Source of the DNA: Candidatus Binatia bacterium
GTDB lineage: Bacteria; Desulfobacterota; Binatia; UTPRO1
Assembly (NCBI GenBank): GCA_036496285.1
Contig: DASXLI010000055.1
Span: forward strand, 3,692-67,691
Direction: 5' to 3'
DNA: 64,000 nucleotides
Under the pieces are notes generated by a model. The model saw only the letters and a program-made list of their open reading frames with translations. It had not been told where the DNA came from and did not search any database. Made by a program: the position numbers and the translations under genes. Shown here in pieces: positions 11,562-35,170 of this stretch. Positions within the stretch are counted from its first letter, which is position 1. Each line of letters begins with the position of its first letter.

Positions 11562-12800
<1,239 letters not shown>

Positions 12801-16629: not shown

Positions 16630-16647
16630 AGTCAGGAGGATCACGCC

Positions 16648-17127: not shown

Positions 17128-17169
17128 GCCGAGCGCAGGTCGGGGCGCCGCCGTCACGGTCGCGCGACC

Positions 17170-19020: not shown

Positions 19021-19169
19021 GCGGGGTGTCCTTTCTCTCCGGGCGGGTTGAAGCCCGCCAAGCTGCCTCAAAACTCGCAAATGTCAAGGAATCGGCGGCG
19101 CTGTCGCATCCGCGCTGGCGGAACCGCGGGCGGTTGCACTGCCGCGGCGGAGAACGTAGTGGCGGGACG

Positions 19170-19838
19170 ATGCGGGAGCCCTCCGCGACGACCGAGGCGC
19201 CCTACGTCCCCGCGCTCGGGTTCGCGGCGCTCACTCGCCTGTACGACCCGGTGCTGCGTGCGACACTTCGCGAGGATGTCTTCAAGCGGGCGCTGGTGGC
19301 CCAGGTGGCGCCGGCGAGTGGATCGCGCGTGCTCGACCTCGGGGCGGGCACCGGCACCCTCACCATGCTGCTTCAGCGGGCGGCGCCGGGCGCGACCGTG
19401 GTCGGGGTCGACGGCGACGCCGCGATCCTCGCGCTCGCCCGCCGCAAGGCGGCCGCTGCGGAGCTCGTCCTGCGCTTCGACCACGCGATGGCCGACGCGC
19501 TGCCGTACGACGACGGCTCGTTCGACCGCGTCGTGTCGAGCTTGCTCTTGCACCACCTGACGCCCGCGGTGAAGCGGCGCGCCCTCGCCGAGGCGCACCG
19601 CGTGCTCGTGCCGGGCGGGGAGCTGCACGTCGCCGACTGGGGGCGCCCGCAGAACGCGTTGATGCGCGTCCTCTTCGTCGGCATCCAGCTGCTCGACGGC
19701 TTCGCCACGACGGCCGAGAACGTCGACGGCATGCTGCCCGAGCTCTTCCGCGAGGCGGGCTTCCGCGACGTCCACGAGACGCGCGCCTTCGCCACCGTCT
19801 TCGGCACGATCGCGCTCTACCGCGGCCGGCGGGTCTGA
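19170..19838 (+). CDS. class I SAM-dependent methyltransferase
   Basis: Motif I VLDLGAGTGTLT. Start trimmed to MREPSATTE. Methyltransf_11/25-like. Confidence 0.75.
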   Translation: MREPSATTEAPYVPALGFAALTRLYDPVLRATLREDVFKRALVAQVAPASGSRVLDLGAGTGTLTMLLQRAAPGATVVGVDGDAAILALARRKAAAAELVLRFDHAMADALPYDDGSFDRVVSSLLLHHLTPAVKRRALAEAHRVLVPGGELHVADWGRPQNALMRVLFVGIQLLDGFATTAENVDGMLPELFREAGFRDVHETRAFATVFGTIALYRGRRV

Positions 19839-19845
19839 GCGCGTC

Positions 19846-20520
19846 TCAGGGCAGCGCGCCCCGCTGCAGGACCTCATAGGGCGCGGCGTACATGCTGCGC
19901 TTCAGGGCGCCGTAGGTCTGCCGGTCCTTGCTCGCGAGCGCGGCGGCGCGCGCGATCGCGGCCGGCAGCACCTCGTCGGCGGCGACCGCCTCGTCGACGA
20001 TGCCGCGCGTGACCGCGTCGCCGCCGCCGACGCGCGCGCCGGTGAGGATGGCGTCGCGGAACACGGTCGGCGAGAGCCGGCACACGATCAGCGCCGTCAT
20101 GCCGGGCGCGAGCGGCACGCGGATGTCGACCTCGGGGAGGCAGAAGAAGCCGCGGTCCCTCCGCATGACGCGGAAGTCGTGGGCGAGCGCCAGCATGCCG
20201 CCCGCCGCGAAGGCGTGGCCGTTGATCGCAGCGACCGTCGGCACGGGCAGGACGAGGAAGCGGCCCAGCATGCGCTGCACGTCGCCGACGAACGTGCTCG
20301 CCTCGGCCGCGCCGTCGCCCATCATCCAGTTCAGGTCGAGGCCGTTCGAGTAGAACTTGTCCTCGCCGGTCGTGACGAGGGCGGCGGGCCCGCTCGACGC
20401 CTCGACGGTGTCGAGCGCCGCGTTCAGGGCGTCGACGGAGTCGCGGTTGAAGCGGTTCTCCCCGGCCCGCATGGTGAGCACGAACACGTCGCCGTCGCGG
20501 CGCAGATCGACGAGGGACAT
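19846..20520 (-). CDS. enoyl-CoA hydratase/isomerase (crotonase) family protein
   Basis: Crotonase oxyanion-hole region AAINGHAFAAGGMLALAHDFRVM. Start trimmed to MSLVDLRRDG. Confidence 0.8.
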   Translation of the reverse strand: MSLVDLRRDGDVFVLTMRAGENRFNRDSVDALNAALDTVEASSGPAALVTTGEDKFYSNGLDLNWMMGDGAAEASTFVGDVQRMLGRFLVLPVPTVAAINGHAFAAGGMLALAHDFRVMRRDRGFFCLPEVDIRVPLAPGMTALIVCRLSPTVFRDAILTGARVGGGDAVTRGIVDEAVAADEVLPAAIARAAALASKDRQTYGALKRSMYAAPYEVLQRGALP

Positions 20521-20602
20521 CCTGGCTCCTTCTCGCGCGCGCGGCGCGCGGCTCGTAGTGGGCCGCCTTCTAGCCCGCGCGCCGACCTGTCGCACGCGGG
20601 GT

Positions 20603-20998
20603 TCAGAAGCTGATGCGGGCGGCTTCCTCGAGCAGGCGGGCGACCTCGGCCGGGTCGTACTCGTACGCGCGGTGGACGCCGATCCCGAGCGTGCCCCGCA
20701 CGGCGCCGGCCGCGTCGCGGATCGGCACCACGATCGCGCCGTTCACGCCCGTCTGCCGCGCTCCCGGACGGACATCGCCGGTGGTGTCGACCTGGATGTT
20801 GCAGCTCGAGACGGGCTCGTTGCGCTCGGCCGCGAGGCCCGCCATGCCTTTGCCGACCGGGACCCGGCGCACGATCTCGACGACGGGCGGCGGCAGGCCG
20901 ATCTCGGCCTCGAGGAGGAGCAGATCGCCCTCGCGCCGGTGGATGGTGCCGGTATCCGCGGGGAACCGTCCCATGATGGCCGCGAGCACGTCACGCAT
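20603..20998 (-). CDS. GAF domain protein
   Basis: About 131 aa with GAF-like fold motifs (VPVGKGMAGLAAERNEPV...NGAIVVPI). Divergent from the putative eboA. Confidence 0.55.
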   Translation of the reverse strand: MRDVLAAIMGRFPADTGTIHRREGDLLLLEAEIGLPPPVVEIVRRVPVGKGMAGLAAERNEPVSSCNIQVDTTGDVRPGARQTGVNGAIVVPIRDAAGAVRGTLGIGVHRAYEYDPAEVARLLEEAARISF

Positions 20999-21027
20999 GG
21001 CCAGGCGATAGCATAGGCGGCACGATC

Positions 21028-21693
21028 GTGGCAGGGGAGGTGGTCATGCTGGAGGTGTTGCGGGGGCTGCTGCGGGCGCGGACGGCGGTGCCGTTGCCCG
21101 GCGACGACCGGCCTGATGCCTCGGCCCCCGACGCGGGCGCGCTCCTGGCGGCGCTGGCGGGCGCCGGGCGGCGTGTCGGCAAGGCCACGCTCGCGCTCGA
21201 CGAGTCCGAGACGCGGCGCCTGCAAGGCGCCGGCGCGCACTGGCCGATCGCGACGCGTCTCGACGAGCTCTGGCGGATCGCGGTGCTGGTCGCGGCCGCG
21301 GCGCGACTTGACGGCGAGCGCCTCGTCGCCGACGCGTATCGCGGCGGCGACAGCGACGAGCGCTGCGCCGTGCTGCGCGCGCTGCCGCTCCTGCCCGCGC
21401 CCGAGCGCTTCACCGCGCTCGCGGCCGACGCGTGCCGGAGCCATGTGCGCCCGATCTTCGAGGCGCTGGCGTGCGAAAACCCATTTCCCGCGCGCCACCT
21501 CTCCACGCTACACTTCAATCAGATGATCCTGAAGGCGCTCTTCCTCGACGTGCCGCTCATGCGCGTGCTCGGCCTCGACGCCCGGCGGAGCGACGAGCTG
21601 GGGCGCATGGCGCGCGACTACGCCGCCGAGCGCCGCGCCGCCGGCCGTCCGGTGTCGGCGGACCTGGCCGCGCTCGCGGGGGAGGGCGCGTGA
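21028..21693 (+). CDS. eboA: putative EboA (first gene of the ebo cluster; no known domain)
   Basis: About 220-aa Ala/Leu-rich protein directly upstream of, and overlapping (GTGA), the TatD-family eboB. Assignment is by position in the ebo gene set. Confidence 0.5.
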   Translation: MAGEVVMLEVLRGLLRARTAVPLPGDDRPDASAPDAGALLAALAGAGRRVGKATLALDESETRRLQGAGAHWPIATRLDELWRIAVLVAAAARLDGERLVADAYRGGDSDERCAVLRALPLLPAPERFTALAADACRSHVRPIFEALACENPFPARHLSTLHFNQMILKALFLDVPLMRVLGLDARRSDELGRMARDYAAERRAAGRPVSADLAALAGEGA

Positions 21694-22577
21694 GGCTCAT
21701 CGACCCGCACATCCACATGACGTCGCGCACGACCGACGACTACCAGGCGATGGCCGCCGCCGGCATCGTCGCGGTCGTCGAGCCGGCGTTCTGGATCGGC
21801 CAGCCGCGCACCCACGTCGGCACCTTCGAGGACGGCTTCGCATCGCTCGTCGGCTGGGAGCGCTTCCGGGCGTCGCAGTTCGGCATCCGCCACTTCTGCA
21901 CCCTGGCGCTGAACCCGAAGGAGGCCAACGACCCCTCGCTCGTCGAGGGGGTGCTCGCGCTCCTGCCGCGTTGGCTCGAGAAGGAGAGCGTGGTGGCGGT
22001 CGGCGAGGTCGGCTTCGACGACCAGACGCAAGAGGAGGAGCACGTCTTCGCGCGCCAGCTCGAGCTCGCGCGCGCCCACGATCTGCCGGTCCTGGTGCAC
22101 ACGCCCCATCGCGACAAGAAGCGCGGCACCGAGCGCAGCCTCGCCCTGGTACGCGAGGCGGGCTTCCCCGAGGAGCGCGTGCTGATCGACCACAACAACG
22201 AGGAGACGCTGCCCCTCGTCCTCGCGACCGGCTGCTGGGCGGCGCACTCGATCTATCCCGACACCAAGATGGACGAGGAGCGCATGGTGGCGCTCGTGCA
22301 GCGTTACGGCGCCGAGCGCATCATCATCAACAGCGCCGCCGACTGGGGCATCTCCGATCCGTTGAAGGTGCCGAAGACCGCCGCGTTGATGCGCGAGCGC
22401 GGCATCGACGAGGCGACGATCGAGACCGTCGTCTGGCGCAATCCGCTGGCGTTCTTCGCGCAGTCGGGCCGGCTCGACGCGGCCGCGCTCGAGGCCGAGC
22501 CCGCGATCGACCAGCGGGAGCTCTACGAGGGGAACTCGGTGCTGCGCGCCGGCCGCACGCCGCTGGTGCGGCGGTGA
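21690..22577 (+). CDS. eboB: TatD-family metal-dependent hydrolase (EboB)
   Basis: IDPHIHM metal-binding start, plus TatD-like His/Asp motifs (VHTPHRDK, LIDHNNEE). Confidence 0.8.
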   Translation: MRLIDPHIHMTSRTTDDYQAMAAAGIVAVVEPAFWIGQPRTHVGTFEDGFASLVGWERFRASQFGIRHFCTLALNPKEANDPSLVEGVLALLPRWLEKESVVAVGEVGFDDQTQEEEHVFARQLELARAHDLPVLVHTPHRDKKRGTERSLALVREAGFPEERVLIDHNNEETLPLVLATGCWAAHSIYPDTKMDEERMVALVQRYGAERIIINSAADWGISDPLKVPKTAALMRERGIDEATIETVVWRNPLAFFAQSGRLDAAALEAEPAIDQRELYEGNSVLRAGRTPLVRR

Positions 22578-22605
22578 CGACGGCGTCGCGCGACGGACAC
22601 GCGCG

Positions 22606-23985
22606 GTGAGCATGCAGCGGACCGTGGTGGTGAACGTGGTCGGGCTCGACGCCGCCCTGCTCGGCGAGCACACGCCGCACCTCGCGGCGCTGGCGCGCGA
22701 GGGCGGGGTGCGTCCGCTCGAGACGGTCGTGCCGGCGGTGACCTGCACCGCGCAGGCGAGCTTCCTGACCGGCACCATGCCGCGCGAGCACGGCTGCGTC
22801 GCCAACGGCTGGTACTTCCGCGATCTTGCCGAGGTGTGGCTGTGGCGCCAGTCGAACCACCTGGTCGGCGGCGAGAAGCTGTGGGAGGCGGCGCGCCGGC
22901 AGGATCCGTCGTTCACCTGCGCCAACCTCTTCTGGTGGTACAACATGTACAGCTCGGTGGATCACGCGGTCACACCGCGGCCGATCTACCTCGCCGACGG
23001 ACTGAAGCTCCCCGACTTCTACACCGAGCCGTCCGAGTTGCACGGTGAGCTGCGCCAGCGCCTCGGCGACTTCCCGCTCTTCCACTTCTGGGGCCCGAAC
23101 GCCGACATCCGCTCGAGCCGCTGGATCGCCGACGCCGCCCGCTACGTCTACGACACGCGGAAGCCGACGCTCACGCTCGTCTACCTGCCACACCTCGACT
23201 ACAACCTGCAGCGCCTCGGCCCCGGCGACCCCGCGATTGCGGCCGACCTGCGCGCGATCGACGACGTCGCCGGCGAGCTGATCGCGCACGTGCGCGCCGA
23301 CGGCGCACGCGTCGTCGTGCTGTCGGAGTACGCGATCGGGCCGGTGCGCGGCGTCGTCCACGTGAATCGCGCGCTGCGCGAGGCGGGTCTGGTGCGGGTG
23401 CGCGAGGAGCTCGGGCTCGAGAAGCTCGACGCGGGCGCGTCGGAGGCGTTCGCGGTCGCAGATCATCAAGTGGCGCACGTCTACGTGAAGCGGCGCGAGC
23501 GGATCGGTGAGGTGCGCGCGCTGCTCGCGCGGCTCCCCGGCGTCGCGCAGGTGCTCGACGACGAGGGCAAGCGCGCGCTCGGCCTCGATCACGAGCGCTC
23601 CGGCGAGCTCGTCGCGCTCGCCGCCGACGACCATTGGTTCGCCTACTACTACTGGCTCGACGACGCGCGCGCTCCCGAATGGGCGCGCACCGTCGACATC
23701 CATCGCAAGCCCGGCTACGACCCGGCCGAGCTCTTCGTCGATCCCACGCTGACCCTCCCCGCGGCGCAGGTCGGCTGGCGCCTCGCGAAGAAGATGCTCG
23801 GCTTCCGCATGCTGATGGACGTGATCGGCCTCGATCCGTCGCTGGTACGGGGATCGCACGGCGCCCGTACGACCGGCCCGGTGCTGCTCTCGAGCGAGCC
23901 GACCTTGCTGCCCGGCGAGGGCGCCGTGCACGCCACGCAGGTGAAGGGACTGATCCTGCGCCACCTCGGGCTCGCGGCCTCGTGA
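22606..23985 (+). CDS. eboF: alkaline-phosphatase-superfamily nucleotide pyrophosphatase/phosphodiesterase (EboF)
   Basis: AlkP-core motifs (VVNVVGLD, TCTAQASFLTG with the Thr nucleophile, LVYLPHLD). Confidence 0.8.
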   Translation: MSMQRTVVVNVVGLDAALLGEHTPHLAALAREGGVRPLETVVPAVTCTAQASFLTGTMPREHGCVANGWYFRDLAEVWLWRQSNHLVGGEKLWEAARRQDPSFTCANLFWWYNMYSSVDHAVTPRPIYLADGLKLPDFYTEPSELHGELRQRLGDFPLFHFWGPNADIRSSRWIADAARYVYDTRKPTLTLVYLPHLDYNLQRLGPGDPAIAADLRAIDDVAGELIAHVRADGARVVVLSEYAIGPVRGVVHVNRALREAGLVRVREELGLEKLDAGASEAFAVADHQVAHVYVKRRERIGEVRALLARLPGVAQVLDDEGKRALGLDHERSGELVALAADDHWFAYYYWLDDARAPEWARTVDIHRKPGYDPAELFVDPTLTLPAAQVGWRLAKKMLGFRMLMDVIGLDPSLVRGSHGARTTGPVLLSSEPTLLPGEGAVHATQVKGLILRHLGLAAS

Positions 23986-25250
23986 GCCCGTCCCGGCTGC
24001 GGCAGCGGCCTCTCGTGCCGGTCGTGCTGTTTCTAATGATCGGCGCCGTGATCGCGCTGCGCACCGCGCGGAACCTGAACGTGCCCGGACACCCCGAGCT
24101 TCCGGGCTACGGACTGCACGACTTCCGCGACGTGCTCTACTACCCCGCCGTCGCCGTGCTCGACGGGCGGAATCCCTACGACCCGGCCGTCTTCCGCAGC
24201 GCCTATCCGGTGGCGCGGCCGCTCGCGCCGTACGCGCCGACGATGCTGATGCTGCACGTGCCGTTCGCGCTCCTGCCGTTCCCGCTCGCCGAGTGGACGC
24301 ACTTCGCGATGAACCTGACGCTGATGCTCGCGCTCGCGTACCTCGCGCTCGACGCCTGCGGATTGCCGGTCGCGGCGGCCGGCGTGTTCGGTCTCGGCGC
24401 GGTGATCCTGCTCAGCCGGCCGGCGCACATGACGCTCTACATCGGGCAGTCCTCGGCGTATCTGGTCGCCGCGACGTATTGCGCCTTGCTCTTCGCCGAG
24501 CGCCGTCCGGCGCTCGCCGGGGTCGCGCTCGCGATCGCGTGCGCCAAGCCGACGTTCGGCATCCCGCTCTGCGCGGTGCTATTAGTGCGCGGCGACCGCG
24601 CCGCGCTCGTCTGGGGGCTCACGCTCGCTGCCGTGGCGGGCGCCGTCATGGTCGCGGTGCTCGCGCCGGCGGCGGGAGGCCTCGCGCCCCTCGTCGAGTC
24701 CATCCGCGACAGCTACGCGCGCCTCATGCAGGATCCGTCGGCCAACGCGGCGTCGAGCATCATCCGCGTCGATGCCGTCGCGCTCGTCGGCCGCCTGCTC
24801 GGTGGCACGGTCGGCCCGGCCGCCGAGAGCCTGGCGACGCTGGCGCTCCTCGCCACCGGCACGGCCGCCGTGTGGCGGATCAGCTGCGCGGGCGACGCCG
24901 ACGCGCGGCTGCGGTCCGCCTGCGTTGCCTGCGTCACGATCCTCGCCTGCATGTACCACCAGTCGTACGACGGGCTCCTGCTGACGCTGCCGATGCTCGC
25001 GCTCGCGAGCGGCCGGCTCGGGGACGCCCCGGTGACGCGGCTGGTGGCATTCGTCGCCATGTCGGTTCCCGCCCTCAACTACGTGGCGACGGACACGGTC
25101 GTCGACGCGCTCGGCGTGCAAGGCACGGCACGCGCCGTCATCGGCTCGGTGAACGGTGCGGCGCTGCTCGTTGCGTTCGTGGCGGTCACGATGCTCGCCG
25201 TCAGCCGGCGCGGCGTCGCCCGCCCGCTCGTCGCCGACGTGGCCGGGTGA
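23982..25250 (+). CDS. GT87/DUF2029-like polytopic membrane protein (putative polyprenyl-phosphate-dependent glycosyltransferase), paralog A
   Basis: GTG start overlapping the eboF stop (GTGA). About 11 predicted TM helices. Conserved loop GxxDFRDxxYYPA and NPY motifs, and HQSYD near the C-terminus. Confidence 0.6.
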   Translation: MSPSRLRQRPLVPVVLFLMIGAVIALRTARNLNVPGHPELPGYGLHDFRDVLYYPAVAVLDGRNPYDPAVFRSAYPVARPLAPYAPTMLMLHVPFALLPFPLAEWTHFAMNLTLMLALAYLALDACGLPVAAAGVFGLGAVILLSRPAHMTLYIGQSSAYLVAATYCALLFAERRPALAGVALAIACAKPTFGIPLCAVLLVRGDRAALVWGLTLAAVAGAVMVAVLAPAAGGLAPLVESIRDSYARLMQDPSANAASSIIRVDAVALVGRLLGGTVGPAAESLATLALLATGTAAVWRISCAGDADARLRSACVACVTILACMYHQSYDGLLLTLPMLALASGRLGDAPVTRLVAFVAMSVPALNYVATDTVVDALGVQGTARAVIGSVNGAALLVAFVAVTMLAVSRRGVARPLVADVAG

Positions 25251-26539
25251 GCGCGGCCGTGCGCGACGATCACGCCGCCGCGGCAGGCAGCCGCCGGACG
25301 GCGCTCCTGCTCGCGCTCATCGTGTTCGCGATCGCCTTCGGTGCGGTGTCGCTGCGCACCTACCGAAACGCGATCGTTCCGGGGCAGCCGGAGCTCGAGC
25401 GCTATGGTCTCCGCGACTTCCGCGACGCCGTGCATTACCCGGCGCGCGCGCTCCTCGACGGCGTCAACCCGTATCGTCCGTCGACGTACCGCGCGCGCTA
25501 CCCGGTTGGCTCCAAGTTTCCGCTGTACACGCCGCTCACCCTGTTGGTGCACCTGCCGTTCGGGATGGGGTCGGTGCTCGCCGCCGGCACGGTGCACTAC
25601 CTCCTGAACGTGCTCTGCATGGTGCTGCTCGCGTACCTCAGCCTGCGCGTGTGCGGTGCGCGCCACGACGCGGCGGCGGTGCTCGGTCTCGGGGCGTTCA
25701 TCCTCGTGTGCCGGCCGGGCTACACCAACGTCTACACCGGCGAGTGCACCGCATACGTCACGCTCGGGGCGTATCTGGTCCTGGCGTTCGCCGAGGATCG
25801 GCCGGTCGTCGGCGCGCTCGGGGCGGCGCTCGCCTGGGTGAAGCCGACGTTCGGTGCGCCGCTCACCATCCTGCTCCTCGCGCGGCGCGATTGGCGGAAC
25901 GCGGCGCTGCGCGGCATCCTGCTGGGCGCGATCGTCTCGCTTCCGGTGCTGCTCGTGCTGCTGCGGGCGGAAGGCGGGGTCGGACCGTTGCTCGGCTCCG
26001 TGGTCGAGAACTATACGACCAGGAACACCGGGGAGACCTACTCGGGCGCGAGCGTGCTGGCGCTCGACGCGGGCGCGTTCGTCGCGCGCCTGCTCGGCCG
26101 CACGCCGGGAGCGGCGCTCGGCGGTGTCGAGCTCGCGGTCACGCTGCTGATCCTGGGCTTCGGCGTCGGCGCGGTCCTGTGCGCCGGCGAGGATCGCGCG
26201 AGCCGCTTCACGGCGATCACGATCGCCTGCCTGACCGTGCTGCTTGCCGTGCATCACCAGTCGTACGACGCGATCCTCGTGATCCTTCCGGCGACGGCGC
26301 TCGCGACCGGCCGCTGGTCGCCCCGCCTGCCGCTGCTCGGTGCCGCCACACCCTGGATGCTGTGCGCGCTGCTGCTGGTACCGTTCGTGAACTACGCCGC
26401 CTCGTACGCGTTCGTCGACCGCTGGCATCTGACCGGTTGGTCGTGGCTCGCCGCGACCAACGCGAACGGCGGCGCGCTCCTCTGCGCCCTCGTCTTGACC
26501 GGCGCTCTCGCGTTCGGCGCCGGCGCGGAAACGCGTTAG
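25247..26539 (+). CDS. GT87/DUF2029-like polytopic membrane protein, paralog B (tandem duplicate of the preceding gene)
   Basis: GTG start overlapping the previous stop (GTGA). About 45% identity to paralog A across the full length (RNxxVPGxPEL...GLxDFRD...NPY...KPTFG...HHQSYD). Confidence 0.6.
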   Translation: MSAAVRDDHAAAAGSRRTALLLALIVFAIAFGAVSLRTYRNAIVPGQPELERYGLRDFRDAVHYPARALLDGVNPYRPSTYRARYPVGSKFPLYTPLTLLVHLPFGMGSVLAAGTVHYLLNVLCMVLLAYLSLRVCGARHDAAAVLGLGAFILVCRPGYTNVYTGECTAYVTLGAYLVLAFAEDRPVVGALGAALAWVKPTFGAPLTILLLARRDWRNAALRGILLGAIVSLPVLLVLLRAEGGVGPLLGSVVENYTTRNTGETYSGASVLALDAGAFVARLLGRTPGAALGGVELAVTLLILGFGVGAVLCAGEDRASRFTAITIACLTVLLAVHHQSYDAILVILPATALATGRWSPRLPLLGAATPWMLCALLLVPFVNYAASYAFVDRWHLTGWSWLAATNANGGALLCALVLTGALAFGAGAETR

Positions 26540-26594
26540 GCCGCGCTGCGACGCGAGAGGCCAGCCGGACTGCCCGGTGGGCGCGCGGGAATGC

Positions 26595-27617
26595 CTATGC
26601 GCCGAGCCGGGCCAGCGTGCGTTGGATCTCGTCGAAGTCGGCGGCAGAGATGGTGACGCGGTTTGTCGAGTGGAAGGGCGGGAGCGCGCCGCGGACGGCG
26701 GACTCGTCGACCTCGACCCCGAACACCTCGCGGCCGACGGCGCCGATCAGCGCCTCGGGCGCGTGGCAGAAGTCCTCGTACTCGACGACGCGGAAGCGCG
26801 ACGGCCCGAGCTCGCGCTGCTGCTCGCGCATGCGGCGCTCGTGATAGACGAGCTGCGCGCACACCGCCTCGATCGGGCTCGCCGCGTCCTGGCCGACGAC
26901 GCGGTGCCGCGGGTCGGGGACGCCGTACGGTCCCTGGCGCGAGCCCTGGATGACCTCACGCGCGTGCAGGATCGACTGCGCCGCGTACGCGGGCTCGCGG
27001 CGGATGTAGACGAAATGCGCGGTCGGCAGCGCCCCCGCGATCGTCGACGCGACCGTCGCGATCGCGTTGTTCTTGGTGAGGAGCGGCTTGCCGAGCGCCG
27101 TCTCGTACGCCGCGAAGAACCGCCGCATCTCCTCGGCGGTGTGCGGGTCGAGGGCGGCGGGCGGCGTGTAGCGGTCCTCGCCGAGCCAGCGATCCCACAG
27201 GTACAGGCCGTCATTCTGGTCGGCGAATCCCCGGGTGCGGCCGTAGAAGCTGTGGAACGCGGGCGGGCGCGGGCGCAGCACCGACGCGAACACGCGGTTG
27301 GCGACGATCGGTGCCCGCGGGAAGACGGCGGTCAGGTTGTTGAAGTAGCCGACCGGGAGTTGCGAGCGCAGCACCTGCGAGACGACGGTCGTGCCGCTGC
27401 GCGGCGCGCCGGTGACGATGACGATCGGCAGGTGCGGCGACGTCGCCTGCGCGTAGAGCTTGCGCTCGGAACGCGCGAGCACGCCGTCCAGGGGGGCGGC
27501 GAGCGCGGCGAGGCCCGTCGACAGGATGGCGAAGAGCGCGGCGGGGTCGCGGGACCGGATCAGCCTGGAGACCAGGCCGACGGGGTCCTGGAAGTTTCGT
27601 GGGATCAGATGCGCCAT
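26595..27617 (-). CDS. sulfotransferase family protein
   Basis: PAPS 5'-phosphosulfate-binding P-loop TGAPRSGTT. Downstream region with RREP...Y. Last gene of the eboD-E-C operon. Confidence 0.7.
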   Translation of the reverse strand: MAHLIPRNFQDPVGLVSRLIRSRDPAALFAILSTGLAALAAPLDGVLARSERKLYAQATSPHLPIVIVTGAPRSGTTVVSQVLRSQLPVGYFNNLTAVFPRAPIVANRVFASVLRPRPPAFHSFYGRTRGFADQNDGLYLWDRWLGEDRYTPPAALDPHTAEEMRRFFAAYETALGKPLLTKNNAIATVASTIAGALPTAHFVYIRREPAYAAQSILHAREVIQGSRQGPYGVPDPRHRVVGQDAASPIEAVCAQLVYHERRMREQQRELGPSRFRVVEYEDFCHAPEALIGAVGREVFGVEVDESAVRGALPPFHSTNRVTISAADFDEIQRTLARLGA

Positions 27618-27684
27618 TGCCGCACGCCTCATTTCTAGCGTGCGAGGTGGACCGAGTTCCAGCCGCGTAACGCGTCCCGCGACA

Positions 27685-28542
27685 TCACGTGCCGCGGACC
27701 CAGCGCTGCAGCGCGAGCGTCGCGGGCCAGCCGAGCGCGCAGGCGGCGGCCGTCGTTGCGGCGCCTGCGTTGGCGATCGCCAGCGCGTCCACGAGGGCGA
27801 TGCCGGCGATCATGCCGGCGACCGCGCGCGGGAAGCGGTCCGGCGCGGTCCCCCGCAGCAGCCTGACCGCGGCGAGGACGGCGGCGAGGAGCAGCACCCA
27901 TACGGCCGCCGCGACGATGCCGCGGTCGAGGGCGCGCCAGCCGAGGAGAAGCGGCGCGGCGAGGAACGCGAGCGGCCACAGGCTCTCGACCCGCGCCAGC
28001 TGCTCCTGCTTGGCGGCATAGGTGAGGCCGATCAGATAGGCGAAGAGGATCGTCGCGCCGGCGACGACCGGCACCGCGAGGGAGCCCGCGACCGCCAGCG
28101 CGGCAGTCGCGTAGACGAGCCAGCGGCACGCGCCCATGAGGATCGGGCTGAGCGGATTCTGCTTGTGCCACAGGTCGTACAGCACGATCATGCCGGCGAG
28201 GGCGAGGGCCGCGACGACCGCCGCCGCGCCGGGCGCACGCGCGGCGATCAGTAGCATCCCCGCCGCGAGAAGCCCGAAGCCGACCGTGAACACCTCCGCG
28301 GCGCTGACGGCGCCGCTCGGGATCGGCCGCTCGGGGCGCTCGCGCGCGTCGATCGCACGGTCGAAGGCGTCGTTCAGGAACATGCCCCCGACGTAGAAGC
28401 AGGAGAGCGCCGCTGCCGTGTACGCGTAGACGAGCGCACCCGGACGGGCGCCCGCCAGGACGATGCCGGCGGCGACGTTCGTCCAGACCGTCGGCAGGTT
28501 CGACACCCGGCCGAGCTGGAGATAGAGGCGCCGCCGGCTCAC
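27685..28542 (-). CDS. eboC: UbiA-family aromatic/polyprenyl prenyltransferase (EboC)
   Basis: NDxxDxxxD motif (NDAFDRAIDARERPERP) and multiple TM helices. GTG start overlapping the eboE stop. The listed 666-aa ORF is a read-through frame; the true gene is its C-terminal 285 aa. Confidence 0.8.
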   Translation of the reverse strand: MSRRRLYLQLGRVSNLPTVWTNVAAGIVLAGARPGALVYAYTAAALSCFYVGGMFLNDAFDRAIDARERPERPIPSGAVSAAEVFTVGFGLLAAGMLLIAARAPGAAAVVAALALAGMIVLYDLWHKQNPLSPILMGACRWLVYATAALAVAGSLAVPVVAGATILFAYLIGLTYAAKQEQLARVESLWPLAFLAAPLLLGWRALDRGIVAAAVWVLLLAAVLAAVRLLRGTAPDRFPRAVAGMIAGIALVDALAIANAGAATTAAACALGWPATLALQRWVRGT

Positions 28543-29723
28543 GGCGCGGTCATCTGGTCGACGACCCAGGTGAGCTCGCGCGCAACCGCGTCGGCGATCG
28601 GCTCCGTGCGGAACTCCTCGGGCAGCACGTCCCAGGTGTAGGTCTCGACCTCGAGGTGCGCGGTCGGCGCGTCGCGGCGGACCAGCGCCAGGAGCTCGCG
28701 CACGTAACCCTGCGTCGAGCGGAAGCGGCCAAGCGCCTCGCGGAAGAGCGGCACGTGGAAGTGGATGCGCCATTCCCGGGTCGCGTCCGGGCGGCGCTCC
28801 GCCTCGGCGAGCGCGGCCGGCAGGTCGGTCCAGCGGAGCAAGCCTCCCGCCGAACGCTCGACGACCTGGTGCAGGTAGACGTCCTCGGCGAAGGCGCGCA
28901 GGGCGTCGCGGTCGACGGCGGAGCCGACCGACGCGGCGAGCCCGGCGCTCACCTGGATCTTCACGACGCGGATGCCGCGCGACCCGAGGGCGGCGAGCGC
29001 GGCGGCCGGGTCCTCGTACTCGACCGCCATGTGGCAGGCGTCGAGGCAGACGCCGACGTGGCGGCGAAGCGCGGCCGCGCTCGCGGACGGACCGAGCCCC
29101 GGTACCTGGCGGCGGAACAGATGATCCTCGAAGAACGCGACCGTCTCGGCGATCGTTTCGAGCTGGCAGCACGGCTCCGGCTCGAGCGCGAGGGCGATGG
29201 CGACGCCCTGGCGCTCGTGCAGGTCGTGCAGGGTGGCGACGTGCGCCGCGATGCGCGCGGCGATCGCGTCGGCGTCGCCGGCGCCGCCGAGCCGCGCCTT
29301 GAAGGCGCCCGGGACGGTCGAGATGCTGCCCTCGCAGCCGCCTGGCACGAGCGCTGCGAGGATGCGCGCGAGGCCGTCGGTATAGGCGAGCCGTTCGTCC
29401 TCGAGCCAGTCGGGCCGGTAGACGTCCTCTTTCACCGGCGTTCCGTGGAAGCGGCCGTAGGGGAAGCCGTTGATGGTGAAGACGTACAGCCCGCTTTCCG
29501 CGAGGTAGGTGCGAAAGGCCGCCAGCTCGTCCGGCGCTGCGAGCGCCGTCGCGGCCGCGCCGGAGAGCCGCAGCCCGACGCCGAACGGCCGGTCCGGCGC
29601 GACCCGCGCCTTCACCGCGCGCACGTGCGTCGCGACGTTCCGCCGCACCTCCGGCCAGGTCTCGCCGGCGTGGATGTTGGTGCAATAGGTGAGGTGCGGG
29701 GCGCCGGGCGCGGCGAGTCTCAT
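28539..29723 (-). CDS. eboE: xylose-isomerase-like TIM-barrel sugar-phosphate isomerase/epimerase (EboE)
   Basis: About 394 aa. TIM-barrel AP-endonuclease 2 / xylose-isomerase-like pattern. Start overlaps the eboD stop (ATGA). Confidence 0.8.
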   Translation of the reverse strand: MRLAAPGAPHLTYCTNIHAGETWPEVRRNVATHVRAVKARVAPDRPFGVGLRLSGAAATALAAPDELAAFRTYLAESGLYVFTINGFPYGRFHGTPVKEDVYRPDWLEDERLAYTDGLARILAALVPGGCEGSISTVPGAFKARLGGAGDADAIAARIAAHVATLHDLHERQGVAIALALEPEPCCQLETIAETVAFFEDHLFRRQVPGLGPSASAAALRRHVGVCLDACHMAVEYEDPAAALAALGSRGIRVVKIQVSAGLAASVGSAVDRDALRAFAEDVYLHQVVERSAGGLLRWTDLPAALAEAERRPDATREWRIHFHVPLFREALGRFRSTQGYVRELLALVRRDAPTAHLEVETYTWDVLPEEFRTEPIADAVARELTWVVDQMTAP

Positions 29724-30877
29724 CGCGCGTCCGGGCGGAGCCGCCCGATCGCGGCGTCGATCAGCGCGTCGTCCATCCGGTGCACCTCGACGCCCTCGCC
29801 GACCGCGCGCAGCAAGGTGATCGTGAGCTCGCCGCCGAGGTGCTCGCGGAACTCCGCGAGGCCGTCGAGCACCACCCGACGGCGGCCGCTCACGGTGTCG
29901 AGCGCCTCGTCCCAGAGCGGCAGCCCGAGGCGGGCGAGGAGCGTGCGGACGGCCGCACCCGTCGCGGTGTCACACACACCCGCGAGCTCCGCGTAGGTCG
30001 CGTCCATCGCGAGGCCGATCGCGACGGCCTCGCCGTGGCGCAGGCGGTGGCGCGTCATCGACTCGAGCTTGTGCGCCGCCCAGTGGCCGAAATCGAGCGG
30101 GCGGGCGCTGCCGAGCTCGAACGGATCGCCCGAGGTCGCGATGTGGCGCAGGTGCAGCTCGGCGCAGCGCCGGATCAAGGTCTCGAGCGACTCGCGGTCG
30201 CCGCGCGCGAGGGCGTCGGCCGACGACTCGAGCCAGCGGAAGAACGCGGCGTCGCGGATGAGCGCCACCTTCACGGCCTCGGCCATGCCCGCGACGACGT
30301 CGCGGGCTGCCAGCGTCTCGAGGAAGCGGCCATCGTTCACTACGGCGAAGGGCGGCGCGAACACGCCGAGAAAGTTCTTCTTGCCGAACAGGTTGACGCC
30401 GCACTTCACGCCGACGCCGGAGTCGGCCTGCGCCAGCACGCTCGTCGGCACGCGCAGCACGCGCAGGCCGCGGTGCAGGACGGCCGCCGCGTAACCGGCG
30501 AGGTCGAGGAGCGCGCCGCCGCCGACGATCGCGATCACCGCCTGACGATCCATGCCCAGCTCGTTCCAGCGTGTGTGCAGGCGGGCGGCGACCGCCGTGT
30601 CGTTCTTCGCCGCCTCGCCGCCGTCGAGCAGCAGCGGGTCGGCGACGAGCTCGATCGCGTCGCGGTGCTGTTCGGCGTAGGCGGCGATCGCCTCCAGCAG
30701 CCACGGCGACGCCGCGGCGACGTTGCGGTCGACGACCGCGAAGAGGCGGTGGCGGCGCTGCGGCTCGCGGGCGCTCACCGCCTCGCGGAGGCAGCCGTTC
30801 GCCGGCGCGAACGCGTCGCGCGTGAAGAAGACGGGGTACTCGAAGTCGACCGTGACCCGCTGCAGATGACGGTGCAT
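29720..30877 (-). CDS. eboD: 3-dehydroquinate-synthase-like sugar phosphate cyclase family protein (EboD)
   Basis: DHQS-fold motifs (IVGGGALLDLAGYAA, GVKCGVNLFGKKNFLG, HGEAVAIG). Start trimmed to MHRHLQRVTV. Confidence 0.8.
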   Translation of the reverse strand: MHRHLQRVTVDFEYPVFFTRDAFAPANGCLREAVSAREPQRRHRLFAVVDRNVAAASPWLLEAIAAYAEQHRDAIELVADPLLLDGGEAAKNDTAVAARLHTRWNELGMDRQAVIAIVGGGALLDLAGYAAAVLHRGLRVLRVPTSVLAQADSGVGVKCGVNLFGKKNFLGVFAPPFAVVNDGRFLETLAARDVVAGMAEAVKVALIRDAAFFRWLESSADALARGDRESLETLIRRCAELHLRHIATSGDPFELGSARPLDFGHWAAHKLESMTRHRLRHGEAVAIGLAMDATYAELAGVCDTATGAAVRTLLARLGLPLWDEALDTVSGRRRVVLDGLAEFREHLGGELTITLLRAVGEGVEVHRMDDALIDAAIGRLRPDAR

Positions 30878-31023
30878 GGGGGGCTGGGCGTCACCGGCGG
30901 CGCGGTCCGGCCTCGCGTGTGCGCTCAGGCTCGGCTCCGTTCCGGTCTGGGAAGAATAGCGTCGTGCGGGGTCTTCTGCATCAGGGGATCTCGGGGCGCC
31001 TGTCACCCCGCATGCGACGTGGC

Positions 31024-33648
31024 TCAGCGGCGCCAGGCCTCGCCGCCCTCGGCCCACACGCGGTCATGCAATGCGTCCGCGGTCGCCGGGTCGCGCAGCA
31101 GGGCGGCGCGCTCCGACGGGGCGAGCCCGTCGGGACCGTCGGCGACGGCGCGGGCGATGAGCGCCTCGCGGCGGGCGCGAATGGCGGCACGTACCCTCCG
31201 CGGCGCGCCGAGCAGCGCCCGATGCAGCGCCTGCAGGGCCGGATCGACGGCGGCCCATACGAATCCCGCGCGCGGCGCCGGCCGGTCGGCCAGCTCCTCG
31301 ACGTCGCGCAGCTCGCGCGGCGGATCGATCTCCTCCGGAATGAGGAAGAGCCCGCGGGTGCGGGCGCGGTCGCCGAGCGGCACCCGGCTCGCGAAGACCG
31401 AGAGGGGGATCGACAGGATGAGCGCGCCGATGATCGGCATGACCCACCAGAAGTAGTTCGGGTTCAGCCAGAAGAGGCAACCGCCCCAGACGCAGGCGAC
31501 GACCGTGTCGACCCCATGATGCCGGATCGCCTCGGCCCAGCTCGTCTCGGTGTCGTCACGGCCTTGCGACGACCACGTCACCGTGCGGCCCAGCAGGTTG
31601 GTCAGCACGAAACGGCTGTGGAAGACCATGCGGATCGGCGCGAGCAGGCTCGAGACGAGGATCTCGAGCAGCACGCTGAGCGACAGGCGTCCGAGTCCCC
31701 CGTACTTCTTCGCCTCGCGGCGCTTGAAGACGATCAGCGCGACGCTCAGGAACTTCGGCAGGAAGAGGATGATGCCGGTGACCGCGAGGAGCGCGCGCGC
31801 CCAGTTCGGCCGCCAGATCGGCCACGCCGGAAAGAGGCTCGGGCCCGACGGGAAGTAGTTCGGCTCGCGCAGTACGTCGATGATCGCCTGGCTCGTGCTG
31901 AGCGTGAGGAACATGAACCAGAGGAGCGCCGAGACGTACGACAGCACGCCGTTCAGAAAGAGCGCGCGGTGGGCGCCGAAGAGTCCCTCGGTGAAGAGCA
32001 GCCGGAGATGCTGGAGATTGCCCTGGCACCAGCGGCGATCGCGCTTCATCTCCTCGAGCAGGGTCGACGGCACCTCCTCGTAGCTGCCGCTCAGGTCGTA
32101 GGCGAGCCACAGCGTCCAGCCGGCGCGGCCCATGAGCGCCGCCTCGACGAAGTCGTGGCTCAGGATCTCGCCGCCGAGCGGCGGCTTGCCCGGCAGCCGG
32201 GGCAGCGCGCAATGGGCCATGAACGGCGCGACCCGGATGATCGCGTTGTGGCCCCAGTACTGGCCGTCGCCGAGCTGCCAGAAGTGCAGGCCGGCGGCGA
32301 ACATCGGTCCGTAGACCCGGCTGCCGAACTGCTGCACGCGCGCGAAGAGCGAGCGGCGGCTCACTGCCGCCGGCGCCGTCTGGATCATGCCGGCGTCGGG
32401 CCGATGCTCCATGAGCTGCACGAGCCGCACCAGGGTGTCGCCCGTCATGACGCTGTCGGCGTCCAGCATGATCATGTAGCGGTAGTCGCGGCCCCAGCGG
32501 CGGCAGAAGTCGGCGACGTTGCCGCTCTTGCGCCGCAGGCGCACGCGGCGCCGGCGGTAGAAGATGTGATCGAAGCCGCCGACCTCGCGGCACCACGCGA
32601 GCCACGCCGCCTCCTCGCGTACCGCGTGGTCGATGTCGGCCGTGTCGCTCAGCACGAAGAAATGGAAGTGGCGAAGCGCATCGATCCGCGCGAGCGACGC
32701 GTGGATCGCCCGCAGGCCGGCGAAGACGCGGTCGACCGGCTCGGCGCAGATCGGCATGACGATCGCGGTGCGCGTCGCGGCGTCGATCGGCGGCAGGCCG
32801 TCCGCGGGAAGGTTGGTGATCGCGAAGCGCTCGCGCCCGCGCATGAGGGTCACGAACCCGAAGAGCGCCGTCCAGAAGCCGATCGAGATCCAGCTGAAGA
32901 GCGCGCCGAAGAAGACGACGATCGCGACCTCGAGCCATGTGCCGCCCTGGCGCGGCAGCACGTTCACCATGAAGCCGCTCGCGACGATGCTCGGCAGGAA
33001 GACGAGGAAGCCGAGGAGCGCGCGCCGGCGCGCGGCGACGCGGGTCCAGGAGAGCGCGCGGCGCCGGCGGCGTAGCTCGGCGTGGCCGGTCGTGCCTGGG
33101 CCGTCGGGGCGCTTGCCGCGCAGGCGCAGCCAGAGGCGGCGGAGGATGCGCCGCTCGATCGGATCGGGCACCATGCGGCCGCGGTGGAGCGGCGGCGCCG
33201 AGCGGAAGCGCGGCGCGCAGCTCTCGGCGCGGAGCGGCTCCGCGCCGGTGCCCGGCGAGCGGGCAGGTGCGGCGGCGGGCCCGGTCGCACCGCCGGCTCC
33301 GAGCGCCGCGTCGAGACGCCAGGCCGTGAACGGCTCGAGCGTCGGGTCCCACGGATGCGCCGTCCGCGGATGCGCCTCCATCACGAGCGCACGGGTGTAC
33401 GCGAGTGTGTCGGCCATGGCGTCGCCGTCGGCAGTCGCGGCACGCGCCAGGGCCTCGCGAGCGATGCGATCGCACTCGTCCGGCGAGAGGCCGAGCGCCG
33501 CGAGATAGGCGAGCGCATGCGCGTACGCCTCGTCCCAGCGCTGGATCAGGCGCTCGGGCGTGATCGCGATGCGGCCCTCCGGCGCGGGCGGGGGCTCCGT
33601 CCGCTCGCGCGCCCGCAGGTCCGTCGCCTGTCGGATCGGCTCGCTCAT
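31024..33648 (-). CDS. opgH: glucans biosynthesis glucosyltransferase H (OpgH/MdoH, GT2)
   Basis: About 874 aa. GT2 motifs MLDADSVMTGD and RDRRWCQGNLQ. Multiple TM helices on either side of the catalytic domain. Confidence 0.9.
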   Translation of the reverse strand: MSEPIRQATDLRARERTEPPPAPEGRIAITPERLIQRWDEAYAHALAYLAALGLSPDECDRIAREALARAATADGDAMADTLAYTRALVMEAHPRTAHPWDPTLEPFTAWRLDAALGAGGATGPAAAPARSPGTGAEPLRAESCAPRFRSAPPLHRGRMVPDPIERRILRRLWLRLRGKRPDGPGTTGHAELRRRRRALSWTRVAARRRALLGFLVFLPSIVASGFMVNVLPRQGGTWLEVAIVVFFGALFSWISIGFWTALFGFVTLMRGRERFAITNLPADGLPPIDAATRTAIVMPICAEPVDRVFAGLRAIHASLARIDALRHFHFFVLSDTADIDHAVREEAAWLAWCREVGGFDHIFYRRRRVRLRRKSGNVADFCRRWGRDYRYMIMLDADSVMTGDTLVRLVQLMEHRPDAGMIQTAPAAVSRRSLFARVQQFGSRVYGPMFAAGLHFWQLGDGQYWGHNAIIRVAPFMAHCALPRLPGKPPLGGEILSHDFVEAALMGRAGWTLWLAYDLSGSYEEVPSTLLEEMKRDRRWCQGNLQHLRLLFTEGLFGAHRALFLNGVLSYVSALLWFMFLTLSTSQAIIDVLREPNYFPSGPSLFPAWPIWRPNWARALLAVTGIILFLPKFLSVALIVFKRREAKKYGGLGRLSLSVLLEILVSSLLAPIRMVFHSRFVLTNLLGRTVTWSSQGRDDTETSWAEAIRHHGVDTVVACVWGGCLFWLNPNYFWWVMPIIGALILSIPLSVFASRVPLGDRARTRGLFLIPEEIDPPRELRDVEELADRPAPRAGFVWAAVDPALQALHRALLGAPRRVRAAIRARREALIARAVADGPDGLAPSERAALLRDPATADALHDRVWAEGGEAWRR

Positions 33649-33661
33649 GCTCCCGGGCGCC

Positions 33662-35170
33662 TCATTGCACGACCGCGTACGACCACGTCTCGGTGAGGGC
33701 CTCGCCGCCCTTCTCGAGGAAGGCGCGCAGCTCGAGCGTGTCGCGCGTCTGCGGCTGGATCTGGCAGCTCAGGCGCCAGCCGCCCGTGACCTCGTTCTTG
33801 ACGACGTGCTGATCGAGGATCGTCGCCACCTCCTCGCCGTTGAGGATCGTCACTACCCCGCGTAGCACTTCGTTCGCGGGAATGCTCGCCAGCTTGCCGC
33901 CCGCGAAATCGAGGACGAAGCGGTGCGCGTTCGGCACCTTGCCGTAGTCGTGGCGGGTCGCGACGACCTTGCCGGCAGGCGGGATCCTGGGATCGTCGCC
34001 GTACCACGAGAGCACGTACGAGAAGGAGAGCGGCTCGCCCGGCTTGGGTTGCTCGCGTGGCGTCCAGAATCCCACGATGTTGTCGTTCAGCTCGGAGTTG
34101 GTGGGGATCTCGACGAGCTGGACGGCGCCCTCGCCCCAGTCGCCGCGCGGGGTGATCCACGCGCTCGGGCGCACCTCGGGGCGGGTTTCGAGGTCCTCGT
34201 AGTGGACGAAGTCGCGGTCGCGCTGCATGAGCCCGAAGCCCCGCGGGTTCGTCGCCTGGAAGCTGTTCACCTGCACCGCCTTCGGGTCCTCGAGCGGCCG
34301 CCAGAGCCACTCGCCGCTCGCGAGGTGGAGCAGCAGCCCGTCGGAGTCGTGGACCTCGGGCCGGAAGTCGACCGGACGCTCCACGGTGTTCTCACCGAAG
34401 AAGAACATGCTGGTGAGCGGCGCGATGCCGAGGCGCTGCACCGGTTTCCGGAGGAAGATCGTGCTGTCGACCGCGACCGTCGTCTTCACGCCGGGCGTCA
34501 CGACGAAGTGATACGCGCCCGTTACGCTCGGGCTGTCGAGCAGCGCGTACAGCTCGAGCTGCTTGGCCCCCGCGGCCGGCGTCACCAGCCACCACTCGCG
34601 GAAGAAGGGGAACTCCTCCGCCGACGGCAGGCCGGTGTCGATCGCGAGCGCGCGGGCCGACAGGCCGAAGCCCTCGTCCCGCCCGACGGCGCGGAAGTAG
34701 CTGGCGCCGAGGAAGACGATCAGCTCGTCGAGCCGGTTCGCCACCTTCAGCGGATAGTGGACGCGGAACCCGGCGTAGCCGAGGTCGGGCGGGATGCGGC
34801 TCGCGAACGTGTTCTTGCCGTAGTCGAAAAGGGCCGACGAGTATGGGAACGGATGCGGGCCCTGCCGATCGACGACGTTCATCGTGACCGAGCGGTCGTA
34901 GAAGAGGCCCGGATGGAAGAACTGGATGCGGAACGGCGAGCCGGTGTCCGCCCAGAGCGCCTTCTCCGGGCGGAAGCGGATGTCGCGCCACTGGTCATAG
35001 GAGATCTGGAGGAGCCAGTCCGGCACCGTGTCCTTGGTATCGTGGAACTCCTGCTGGGCGAGCTGGCGGGCCTTGGCGGTGACGTCGTCGAGGCCGAACG
35101 CCGCCGCCCGGCCGGCCGGCAGCCATGCGGCGAGCGCGCATAGGAGGAGGGCGCGGGAGCGAAGACGCAT
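33662..35170 (-). CDS. opgG: periplasmic glucan biosynthesis protein OpgG/MdoG
   Basis: Signal peptide. About 502-aa MdoG family. Immediately upstream of opgH. Confidence 0.9.
   Translation of the reverse strand: MRLRSRALLLCALAAWLPAGRAAAFGLDDVTAKARQLAQQEFHDTKDTVPDWLLQISYDQWRDIRFRPEKALWADTGSPFRIQFFHPGLFYDRSVTMNVVDRQGPHPFPYSSALFDYGKNTFASRIPPDLGYAGFRVHYPLKVANRLDELIVFLGASYFRAVGRDEGFGLSARALAIDTGLPSAEEFPFFREWWLVTPAAGAKQLELYALLDSPSVTGAYHFVVTPGVKTTVAVDSTIFLRKPVQRLGIAPLTSMFFFGENTVERPVDFRPEVHDSDGLLLHLASGEWLWRPLEDPKAVQVNSFQATNPRGFGLMQRDRDFVHYEDLETRPEVRPSAWITPRGDWGEGAVQLVEIPTNSELNDNIVGFWTPREQPKPGEPLSFSYVLSWYGDDPRIPPAGKVVATRHDYGKVPNAHRFVLDFAGGKLASIPANEVLRGVVTILNGEEVATILDQHVVKNEVTGGWRLSCQIQPQTRDTLELRAFLEKGGEALTETWSYAVVQ

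Follow-up and report, generated by a model that had tools for sequence, protein, structure and literature searches.

The stretch analysed here (the window) comprises 64,000 nucleotides of contig DASXLI010000055.1 (positions 3,692 to 67,691 of the forward strand) from a Candidatus Binatia bacterium (GenBank assembly GCA_036496285.1), and our subject is the set of ebo genes that it carries together with three further genes lying among them. The six genes eboA to eboF all fall within 9.85 kb and form two sets that are read towards each other, eboA-eboB-eboF on the forward strand and eboD-eboE-eboC on the reverse strand, with two genes for GT87-type membrane proteins (GT87a and GT87b) and one for a sulfotransferase between eboF and eboC (Table 1). 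The window has a G+C content of about 70% and its raw lists of open reading frames are full of spurious frames; coding frames were picked by a plot of GC at each codon position, which resolved a single coding frame throughout 19.8-33.6 kb. All nine genes are without interruption. An earlier note on this DNA, made from the sequence alone, had described a complete six-gene ebo set in two convergent groups meeting at 26540-26594, and both statements hold, as all six genes are intact at 21028-30877, the ebo-specific models for EboA and EboE are passed and the convergence is confirmed by reading the sequence. The myxococcal origin that the note implied is incorrect, the host being a Candidatus Binatia bacterium (Binatota), for which proteins identical to GT87b and the sulfotransferase are on deposit; exact-sequence matching also finds these genes on the JGI metagenome contig Ga0376675_0000945. 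Where two starts compete, eboA more likely begins at ATG 21046, which has a GGAGG Shine-Dalgarno sequence 7 nt upstream, and the sulfotransferase gene more likely at ATG 27617, the sole start conserved among relatives.

Table 1. Features of the ebo locus, with positions in the window.
Feature	Position	Strand	Remarks
small GAF-only protein, divergent from eboA	20603-20998	-	131 aa; PF13185, 42 bits
eboA	21046-21693	+	215 aa; alternative start GTG 21028 gives 221 aa
eboB, TatD-like metal-dependent hydrolase	21690-22577	+	295 aa
eboF, alkaline-phosphatase-superfamily phosphodiesterase	22606-23985	+	459 aa
GT87a, GT-C-type membrane glycosyltransferase, inserted	23982-25250	+	422 aa
GT87b, paralogue of GT87a, inserted	25247-26539	+	430 aa
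convergence gap, 55 bp	26540-26594	.	sequence reading
PAPS-type Stf-like sulfotransferase, inserted	26595-27617	-	340 aa; alternative start ATG 27632 gives 345 aa
eboC-sulfotransferase spacer	27633-27684	-	conserved motif TGGAAC-N15-CGCTAGA
eboC, UbiA-superfamily intramembrane prenyltransferase	27685-28542	-	285 aa
eboE, xylose-isomerase-like TIM barrel	28539-29723	-	394 aa
eboD, DHQS-like sugar-phosphate cyclase	29720-30877	-	385 aa
conserved non-coding leader, probable promoter region, upstream of eboD	30878-31023	-	

For comparison we used the 80 best EboE loci from 185,579 GTDB genomes (one genome per species), onto which the window proteins were mapped; loci and contigs are cited below by handles such as L001. 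The identity of the ebo proteins is clearest for EboE, which matches the profile hidden Markov model (HMM) NF035939 TIM_EboE over its full length at 458.2 bits (cut-off 250), and for EboA, which scores 147.5 bits on NF035938 EboA_domain (cut-off 50) and has a precomputed Pfam match to PF28008 EboA, while reaching only 129 of the 320 bits demanded by the narrower NF035937 EboA_family. EboD scores 542 bits on NF004852 (cut-off 333), a model of proteins like 3-dehydroquinate synthase (DHQS), against 208.5 bits on the true aroB model TIGR01357 (cut-off 305) and merely 77-142 bits against DHQS chains in the PDB. Since EboD is 48-79% identical to the eboE-adjacent EboD of more than 60 loci, this synteny suggests that NF004852 describes the EboD clade, and the scores place EboD outside true AroB. 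EboB matches PF01026 TatD_DNase across the full profile (57 bits; cut-off 27), retains the HxH motif, and is 55-81% identical to the EboB of most other ebo loci and 43-44% identical in five. EboF matches PF01663 Phosphodiest at 215.6 bits (cut-off 23) and is 59-70% identical to the ebo-linked EboF of nearly all loci that have one. The libraries used gave no match to an EboB- or EboF-specific HMM, and a PDB sequence search with EboE returned no matches. Generic Pfam names such as DHQ_synthase, UbiA, TatD_DNase and Phosphodiest permit the locus to be read as a chance neighbourhood of housekeeping aroB, ubiA/menA, tatD and phosphatase genes with no ebo system at all. However, given that the EboA and EboE models are passed, that the aroB model fails, and that dozens of distant genomes also hold these six genes in a cluster, we regard this reading as refuted and give it practically no weight.

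The EboC protein matches PF01040 UbiA at 68 bits, and its best NCBIfam matches, SCO3242_trans (111 bits; cut-off 260) and the EboC equivalog NF035940 (106 bits; cut-off 250), both lie below threshold, so that the HMM check proposed in the earlier note comes out in favour of the EboA_domain, TIM_EboE and NF004852 families and against both aroB and strict membership of the EboC equivalog. A PDB sequence search with EboC found remote matches only, to chlorophyll synthase and DGGGP synthase. Nevertheless, eboC adjoins eboE in most of the 80 loci, and its Asp-rich NDAFDRAIDARERPERP motif recurs in the ebo-linked UbiA proteins of the ten other loci that we inspected. An EboC-like role is thus supported by synteny, by the rank of the best hits and by this motif, albeit outside the equivalog as strictly defined.

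Within the two sets, most genes are joined by 4-bp start/stop overlaps, which on reading the sequence are GTGA for eboA/eboB, eboF/GT87a and GT87a/GT87b, ATGA for eboD/eboE and GTGA for eboE/eboC. The earlier claim that the genes of each set are chained by such overlaps is therefore right for five of the seven junctions, the other two being gaps of 28 nt between eboB and eboF and 52-67 nt between eboC and the sulfotransferase gene. There is no doubt about the eboA/eboB overlap, as the next ATG comes only after the TatD HxH motif (IDPHIH, residues 4-9). The public call of eboB (286 aa, start ATG 21717) loses this catalytic motif, the correct start being GTG 21690, and EboB models may perhaps be truncated likewise across many annotations of high-GC metagenome-assembled genomes (MAGs). 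The eboF/GT87a overlap and the N-terminal peptide behind it are conserved in contigs L083 and L090. Scanning for terminators gave no site in any of three spacers, namely the convergence gap and those between opgH and eboD and between eboC and the sulfotransferase gene, and none of the three forms a stable hairpin (fold z-scores -0.7 to +0.5 against shuffled sequence). The scanned region holds seven terminator-like sites, the plausible one being that after a P450 gene upstream of the locus. A scan for sigma-70 promoters gave no sites and is uninformative at this GC content. The junctions are thus seen directly, and the transcript structure of the locus is inferred.

The arrangement of the six genes is not exceptional. 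Orthologues of all six are clustered, within the stretch fetched for each locus, in 37 of the 80 loci, and the largest class among these complete loci (12 of the 37) has eboD-eboE-eboC facing eboA-eboB-eboF exactly as in the window, with the order FABDEC second (8 loci). The convergent class is hosted by Haliangiales, Polyangiaceae, Rokuibacteriota, Nitrospiraceae, Terriglobia and pseudomonadotal MAGs. The nearest EboE, at 74% identity, belongs to another Binatia MAG, L001. Conservation of the neighbourhood, which the earlier note had proposed to examine by synteny, is thereby established: the six genes cluster in 37 related loci and the layout of the window recurs in its close relatives. By the same token the locus cannot be called rearranged, as that note had it, since the D-E-C/A-B-F convergent form is the most frequent class and orders other than ABCDEF were published in 2016 and 2026. 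Yurchenko et al. 2016 (PMC5133447) already recorded the orders ABDEFC, FABDEC and DECABF, reversed orientations and inserted non-ebo genes, and Kallscheuer et al. (preprint 10.64898/2026.05.21.724671) describe phylum-specific gene orders across 3,403 clusters; Binatia are not named in that preprint or its supplement. The two-operon layout thus appears, from these comparisons, to be typical of an ebo clade outside Bacteroidota and Cyanobacteria. The window shares with the published non-ABCDEF clusters the six clustered families and the same D-E-C and A-B-F sub-blocks (as in DECABF and FABDEC). It differs from them in its Binatota host, in the three foreign genes (3.7 kb) between eboC and eboF, and in the EboC equivalog and EboA_family cut-offs that its proteins do not reach, the EboC shortfall being common to the three clade-mates tested.

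The distance from eboC to eboF varies within the convergent class from 1 bp to 4 kb, and in the window it is occupied by the three inserted genes. Both membrane proteins match PF09594 GT87 (GT87a 70 bits, GT87b 52 bits; cut-off 25) and, at 40% identity to each other, are paralogues. Hydrophobic stretches are predicted in 8 windows of GT87a and 10 of GT87b, some of them overlapping, and the proteins carry the loop motifs GLHDFRD and GLRDFRD, of which the topology would be that of a loop and the Asp residues would be catalytic. The GT87 family includes PimE-type polyprenyl-phosphate-mannose-dependent mannosyltransferases, and the two proteins here resemble those of mycobacteria in passing the Pfam GT87 model, in several predicted membrane-spanning segments and in their N-terminal D-F-R-D loop motif. 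The PDB sequence search was without matches to any solved structure for GT87a and the sulfotransferase alike. The sulfotransferase matches PF13469 Sulfotransfer_3 at 60 bits (cut-off 27) and has a GAPRSGTT 5'-phosphosulfate-binding (5'-PSB) loop, the site expected to bind 3'-phosphoadenosine 5'-phosphosulfate (PAPS). Among 35 homologues G75, R78 and G80-T81-T82 of the GxPRSGTT loop are invariant, and P77 and S79 nearly so. Its AlphaFold 2 (AF2) model has a pLDDT of 93, and the best Foldseek matches in the PDB are the mycobacterial Stf9 (2z6v, E 2e-9) and Stf1 (2zq5), with which it shares fold and PAPS loop at an identity of only about 15%. In contrast to the mycobacterial envelope enzymes, the genes here belong to a Gram-negative-type host, and the partners found in relatives are UDP-GlcNAc 2-epimerase, PMT_2-like proteins and very large secreted proteins.

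The earlier note took these genes for added tailoring functions of the ebo pathway, a view that comparison does not support: homologues of GT87a, GT87b and the sulfotransferase are absent from all 80 ebo loci, even at E<=1e-3, and orthologues occur without ebo. The nearest non-identical relatives of GT87b form two groups, one of 79-85% identity, which includes the whole-layout contigs L083 and L090 and the partial contig L082, and one of 50-58%. Three orthologues of the second group were looked up and all lie in ebo-free neighbourhoods. In L084/L085 the GT87b orthologue converges with a Sulfotransfer_3 gene and a UDP-GlcNAc 2-epimerase gene, in L088 it sits inside an epimerase-sulfotransferase-GT87 operon, and in L086/L087 a GT87a-GT87b tandem follows GT2, acetyltransferase, carbamoyltransferase and PMT_2 genes; the GT87a orthologue (51% identity) likewise lies in the ebo-free polysaccharide cluster L086. 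The sulfotransferases of the ebo-free GT87b loci looked up are 71% identical to that of the window, above the conservation of the GT87 proteins, and further orthologues (56-75%) stand after an epimerase gene or beside GT-C-like membrane proteins and very large secreted proteins. In the sister MAG GCA_041476145.1, the sulfotransferase orthologue (75%) is on JBGOSW010000057 (L092) and eboDEC (69-79%) on JBGOSW010000010 (L001), that is, in a sister Binatia lineage the sulfotransferase gene is unlinked from eboDEC. A metagenome scan with the sulfotransferase found two loci only, both from close relatives, and the full layout with the insertion was found only in such relatives (79-93% identity), namely L083 and L090, with L082 partial.

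Outside ebo, a module recurs in uncultured high-GC bacteria that combines UDP-GlcNAc 2-epimerase, Sulfotransfer_3 and a GT-C-like membrane protein, the last being GT87, PMT_2-like or unannotated (L084:10001-14074, L088:1556-5076, L092:6819-10884 and L094:6821-10577). Its neighbours are often very large secreted proteins (1,100-1,700 aa) that contain TSP3_bac, PKD or DUF4215 domains, company that suggests a role in sulfated glycan decoration of the envelope or of secreted proteins.

Could the GT87 pair and the sulfotransferase nevertheless form one integrated supercluster with ebo and tailor its product, for example into a glycosylated and/or sulfated meroterpenoid or cyclitol? Several features speak for this: GT87a starts on the stop codon of eboF (GTGA) in the window, L083 and L090, the sulfotransferase gene is on the same strand as eboC and follows 52-67 nt behind it, eboD and the sulfotransferase gene are each preceded by a GGAAC-N15-CGC motif, the arrangement is retained in four assemblies, and small-molecule sulfotransferases have the same fold. 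However, given that all three genes are missing from each of the 80 related loci, that their orthologues (50-75%) occupy ebo-free envelope-glycan contexts, that the sulfotransferase gene is unlinked from eboDEC in the sister MAG, and that GT87 and other GT-C enzymes act in the periplasm with polyprenyl-phosphate sugars and not on small cytoplasmic metabolites, we consider such tailoring unlikely. In addition, the genes called in the longer C-to-F gaps of other lineages are unrelated to one another and to the insert. There and in the L001 flanks we find genes for GST, DUF3995, GT4, pirin and YceI proteins, for an HGSNAT-like acyltransferase and for a solute-binding protein, all mutually unrelated, and the idea of a conserved accessory gene at the operon junction of other lineages was rejected on that ground. 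The simplest reading, judged by these comparisons, would be that a GT-C/sulfotransferase module of envelope-glycan type was inserted at the ebo convergence point in one Binatia sub-lineage.

The regions upstream of eboD and of the sulfotransferase gene bear on how the two parts might be expressed. DNA-level conservation of the 146-nt spacer upstream of eboD extends from the window to L083:352-530 and L090:15600-15805 (reverse strand) and, more distantly, to L001:8700-8862, with the invariant blocks GCAGAA, CTTCC-N6-GGAACGGAGC and CTGAGCGCnCAC. Its composition is not coding-like, it has no special fold, and no such region precedes eboD in other lineages. It is not a known riboswitch, because an Rfam scan of 20500-36800 found no family at E<=1. 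We believe that it is probably a lineage-specific promoter or operator, in which case eboDEC would not simply be read through from the upstream genes opgG-opgH. A repeated operator of the form TTCC-N6-GGAAC was considered and rejected, because the window holds 17 one-mismatch matches where 8.5 would be expected, an excess that is not significant alone. In the eboC-sulfotransferase spacer, the motif CTGGAACTCGGTCC..GCACGCTAGA is conserved in the window, L082:295-385, L083:3695-3790 and L090:12300-12420 (reverse strand). The pattern TGGAAC-N15-CGCTAGA is matched at 27638-27661 and has the same GGAAC-N15-CGC spacing as that upstream of eboD, at about 30935. It might serve as a promoter, its form resembling those of extracytoplasmic function (ECF) sigma factors. 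In the ebo-free contigs L084, L088 and L092, the sulfotransferase orthologues lack this motif in their upstream regions.

The genes opgG and opgH, for osmoregulated periplasmic glucan synthesis, occupy 31024-35170 on the reverse strand and lie immediately upstream of eboD in the window and in L090. In L001 they are 2.5 kb upstream of eboD, and they are not found in the other 79 ebo loci. In L001 two genes stand between opgGH and eboD, one for a GST and one, in the opposite orientation, for an HGSNAT-like protein. That opgGH is a general part of the ebo system was rejected, as only Binatia show the pairing (1 of 80 loci) and L001 has other genes in between. The upstream P450 gene is separated from opgG by a terminator-like hairpin, GGTCCGCATTGGCGGGCC, with a T-rich run behind it (35208-35225, reverse strand).

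This neighbourhood invites a second alternative, in which EboD and EboC make a prenylated cyclitol or cyclitol phosphate that ferries material to the periplasm (the "metabolite traffic" view) and the GT-C enzymes and opgGH use or decorate it. Such a carrier was proposed by Klicki et al. 2018 (PMC6282210), GT-C enzymes do use lipid-linked donors, and the position of opgGH next to eboD here and in L090, and 2.5 kb off in L001, would suit it. In contrast, opgGH adjoins ebo only in Binatia, eboD has a conserved upstream region of its own, and elsewhere the GT87 and sulfotransferase genes occur independently of ebo. Furthermore, EboC farnesylates hydroxyquinolines and ebo deletions abolish thallusin according to the preprint of Kallscheuer et al., and we therefore regard a lipid carrier as very unlikely. 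Almost as doubtful, in our opinion, is the bolder proposition that ebo has become fused, physically and transcriptionally, with the GT-C/sulfotransferase module beside opgGH, such that its product or an intermediate is sulfated, glycosylated or turned into a lipid-linked periplasmic donor.

What ebo makes is no longer as obscure as the earlier note supposed when it called the products chemically undefined. The product of EboD was reported by Tanoeyadi 2024, according to the citing passage in PMC12904256, and EboC homologues farnesylate quinolines (PMC9235831). In the preprint (10.64898/2026.05.21.724671), which ties ebo to thallusin and saccharoquinoline, EboC farnesylates hydroxyquinoline carboxylates, L-aspartate labels the quinoline core, and deletion of eboB, eboC, eboE or eboF in Stieleria abolishes thallusin. 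Its authors found that the presence of ebo tracked thallusin production in 35 of 35 strains and in three cyanobacteria tested separately, reported 11 phyla with ebo core genes, Myxococcota and Desulfobacterota among them, and suggested that the scytonemin phenotype is possibly indirect. The confirmed producers include the alphaproteobacterium Tranquillimonas (Fig. S5 legend of the preprint), the sole assayed member of the clade to which the window belongs.

Our preferred reading, to which we assign a probability of about 0.72, is that this Binatia lineage carries an intact eboA-F set in the two-operon layout typical of its clade, that its product is a quinoline meroterpenoid, and that an independent envelope module has been inserted into the locus. 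By analogy with the characterised systems, EboA, EboB, EboE and EboF would build a hydroxylated quinaldic-acid core from the EboD cyclitol and L-aspartate. EboC, a membrane enzyme, would then farnesylate this core, and perhaps cyclise it too, to give an end product of the saccharoquinoline/thallusin type. The independent three-gene envelope module would have been inserted where the two ebo operons converge, which would have brought the GT87 genes into translational coupling with eboF and placed the sulfotransferase gene behind eboC. The ancestral role of the insert would be modification of envelope glycoconjugates and not ebo chemistry.

Several observations weigh against this reading. The thallusin link comes from one unreviewed preprint, and the assayed strains lie outside Binatia and its nearest ebo relatives. 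EboC is far under the NCBIfam equivalog cut-off (106 against 250 bits) and scores slightly better on the SCO3242 model; the ebo-linked UbiA proteins of Granulosicoccus, Bradyrhizobium and Haliangiales are likewise below it, at 112-138 bits. As these three also score low, failure on the equivalog is clade-wide, and the EboC of this clade is a distinct subgroup, which may differ in its preference for acceptor or prenyl donor. The inserted genes are tightly joined to ebo, with the eboF GTGA overlap conserved in three contigs and similar GGAAC-N15-CGC motifs upstream of both eboD and the sulfotransferase gene, and the insert may possibly have acquired a functional coupling to ebo. The retention of the insertion says little about selection, because the relatives that share it are close (79-93% identity).

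The locus may also be set beside two better-known systems. It has the same six functions as the canonical eboABCDEF operon of Bacteroidota and Cyanobacteria (Maribacter, Nostoc punctiforme) and presumably the same route from an EboD cyclitol to EboC farnesylation. However, the single-strand A-B-C-D-E-F order is replaced here by two convergent units, the sequences are divergent enough to fail the EboC equivalog HMM, and in this clade the product has been shown for one alphaproteobacterium, per the preprint. The EDB cluster of Pseudomonas fluorescens NZI7, which is involved in nematode repellence, likewise consists of an ebo set with three lineage-specific extra genes, some of them with signal peptides (PMC6282210). 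To judge from its description, there is no sign that its extra genes are GT87 or sulfotransferase genes.

Some further features of the surroundings deserve mention. Homologues of the small GAF-only protein (40-53% identity) are encoded directly beside ebo genes in L004:12261-12635, L018:2167-2439, L022:7290-7637, L047:12198-12488 and L068:358-732, and L083 and L090 carry the gene too. Its place is not fixed: it is divergent from eboA in the window and from eboD in Polyangia, and in two other MAGs it follows eboC. The protein may act as a seventh ebo partner with a regulatory or ligand-binding role. The flanks 15067-20595 and 35246-39203 are conserved in L083 and L090. At 10001-14000 the G+C content falls to about 0.645, compared with about 0.70 elsewhere, which coincides with a block of reverse-strand genes that includes a PrkA-type serine kinase (12834-14855).

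In terms of novelty, the ebo layout is a known one and what is new is the lineage-specific insertion of three genes. A locus that looks rearranged is the standard ebo layout for soil and groundwater Myxococcota, Rokuibacteriota, Nitrospirota, Acidobacteriota and Binatota, and genes that look like tailoring functions can be unrelated cargo at the junction of convergent operons. Binatia now join the lineages known to have all six ebo genes. Provided that the thallusin preprint holds, the genetic potential to make this algal morphogen, or a related quinoline meroterpenoid, reaches another uncultured soil phylum. The remaining interest lies in a possible functional coupling of the insert to ebo through co-transcription. 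The lineage-specific coupling of eboF to GT87 genes amounts to an inexpensive natural test of any entry of ebo products into the chemistry of envelope glycoconjugates. Were a fusion of ebo with the envelope module to prove true, it would be the first genetic bridge between the views of ebo as the source of a secreted meroterpenoid signal and as a system for periplasmic metabolite traffic.

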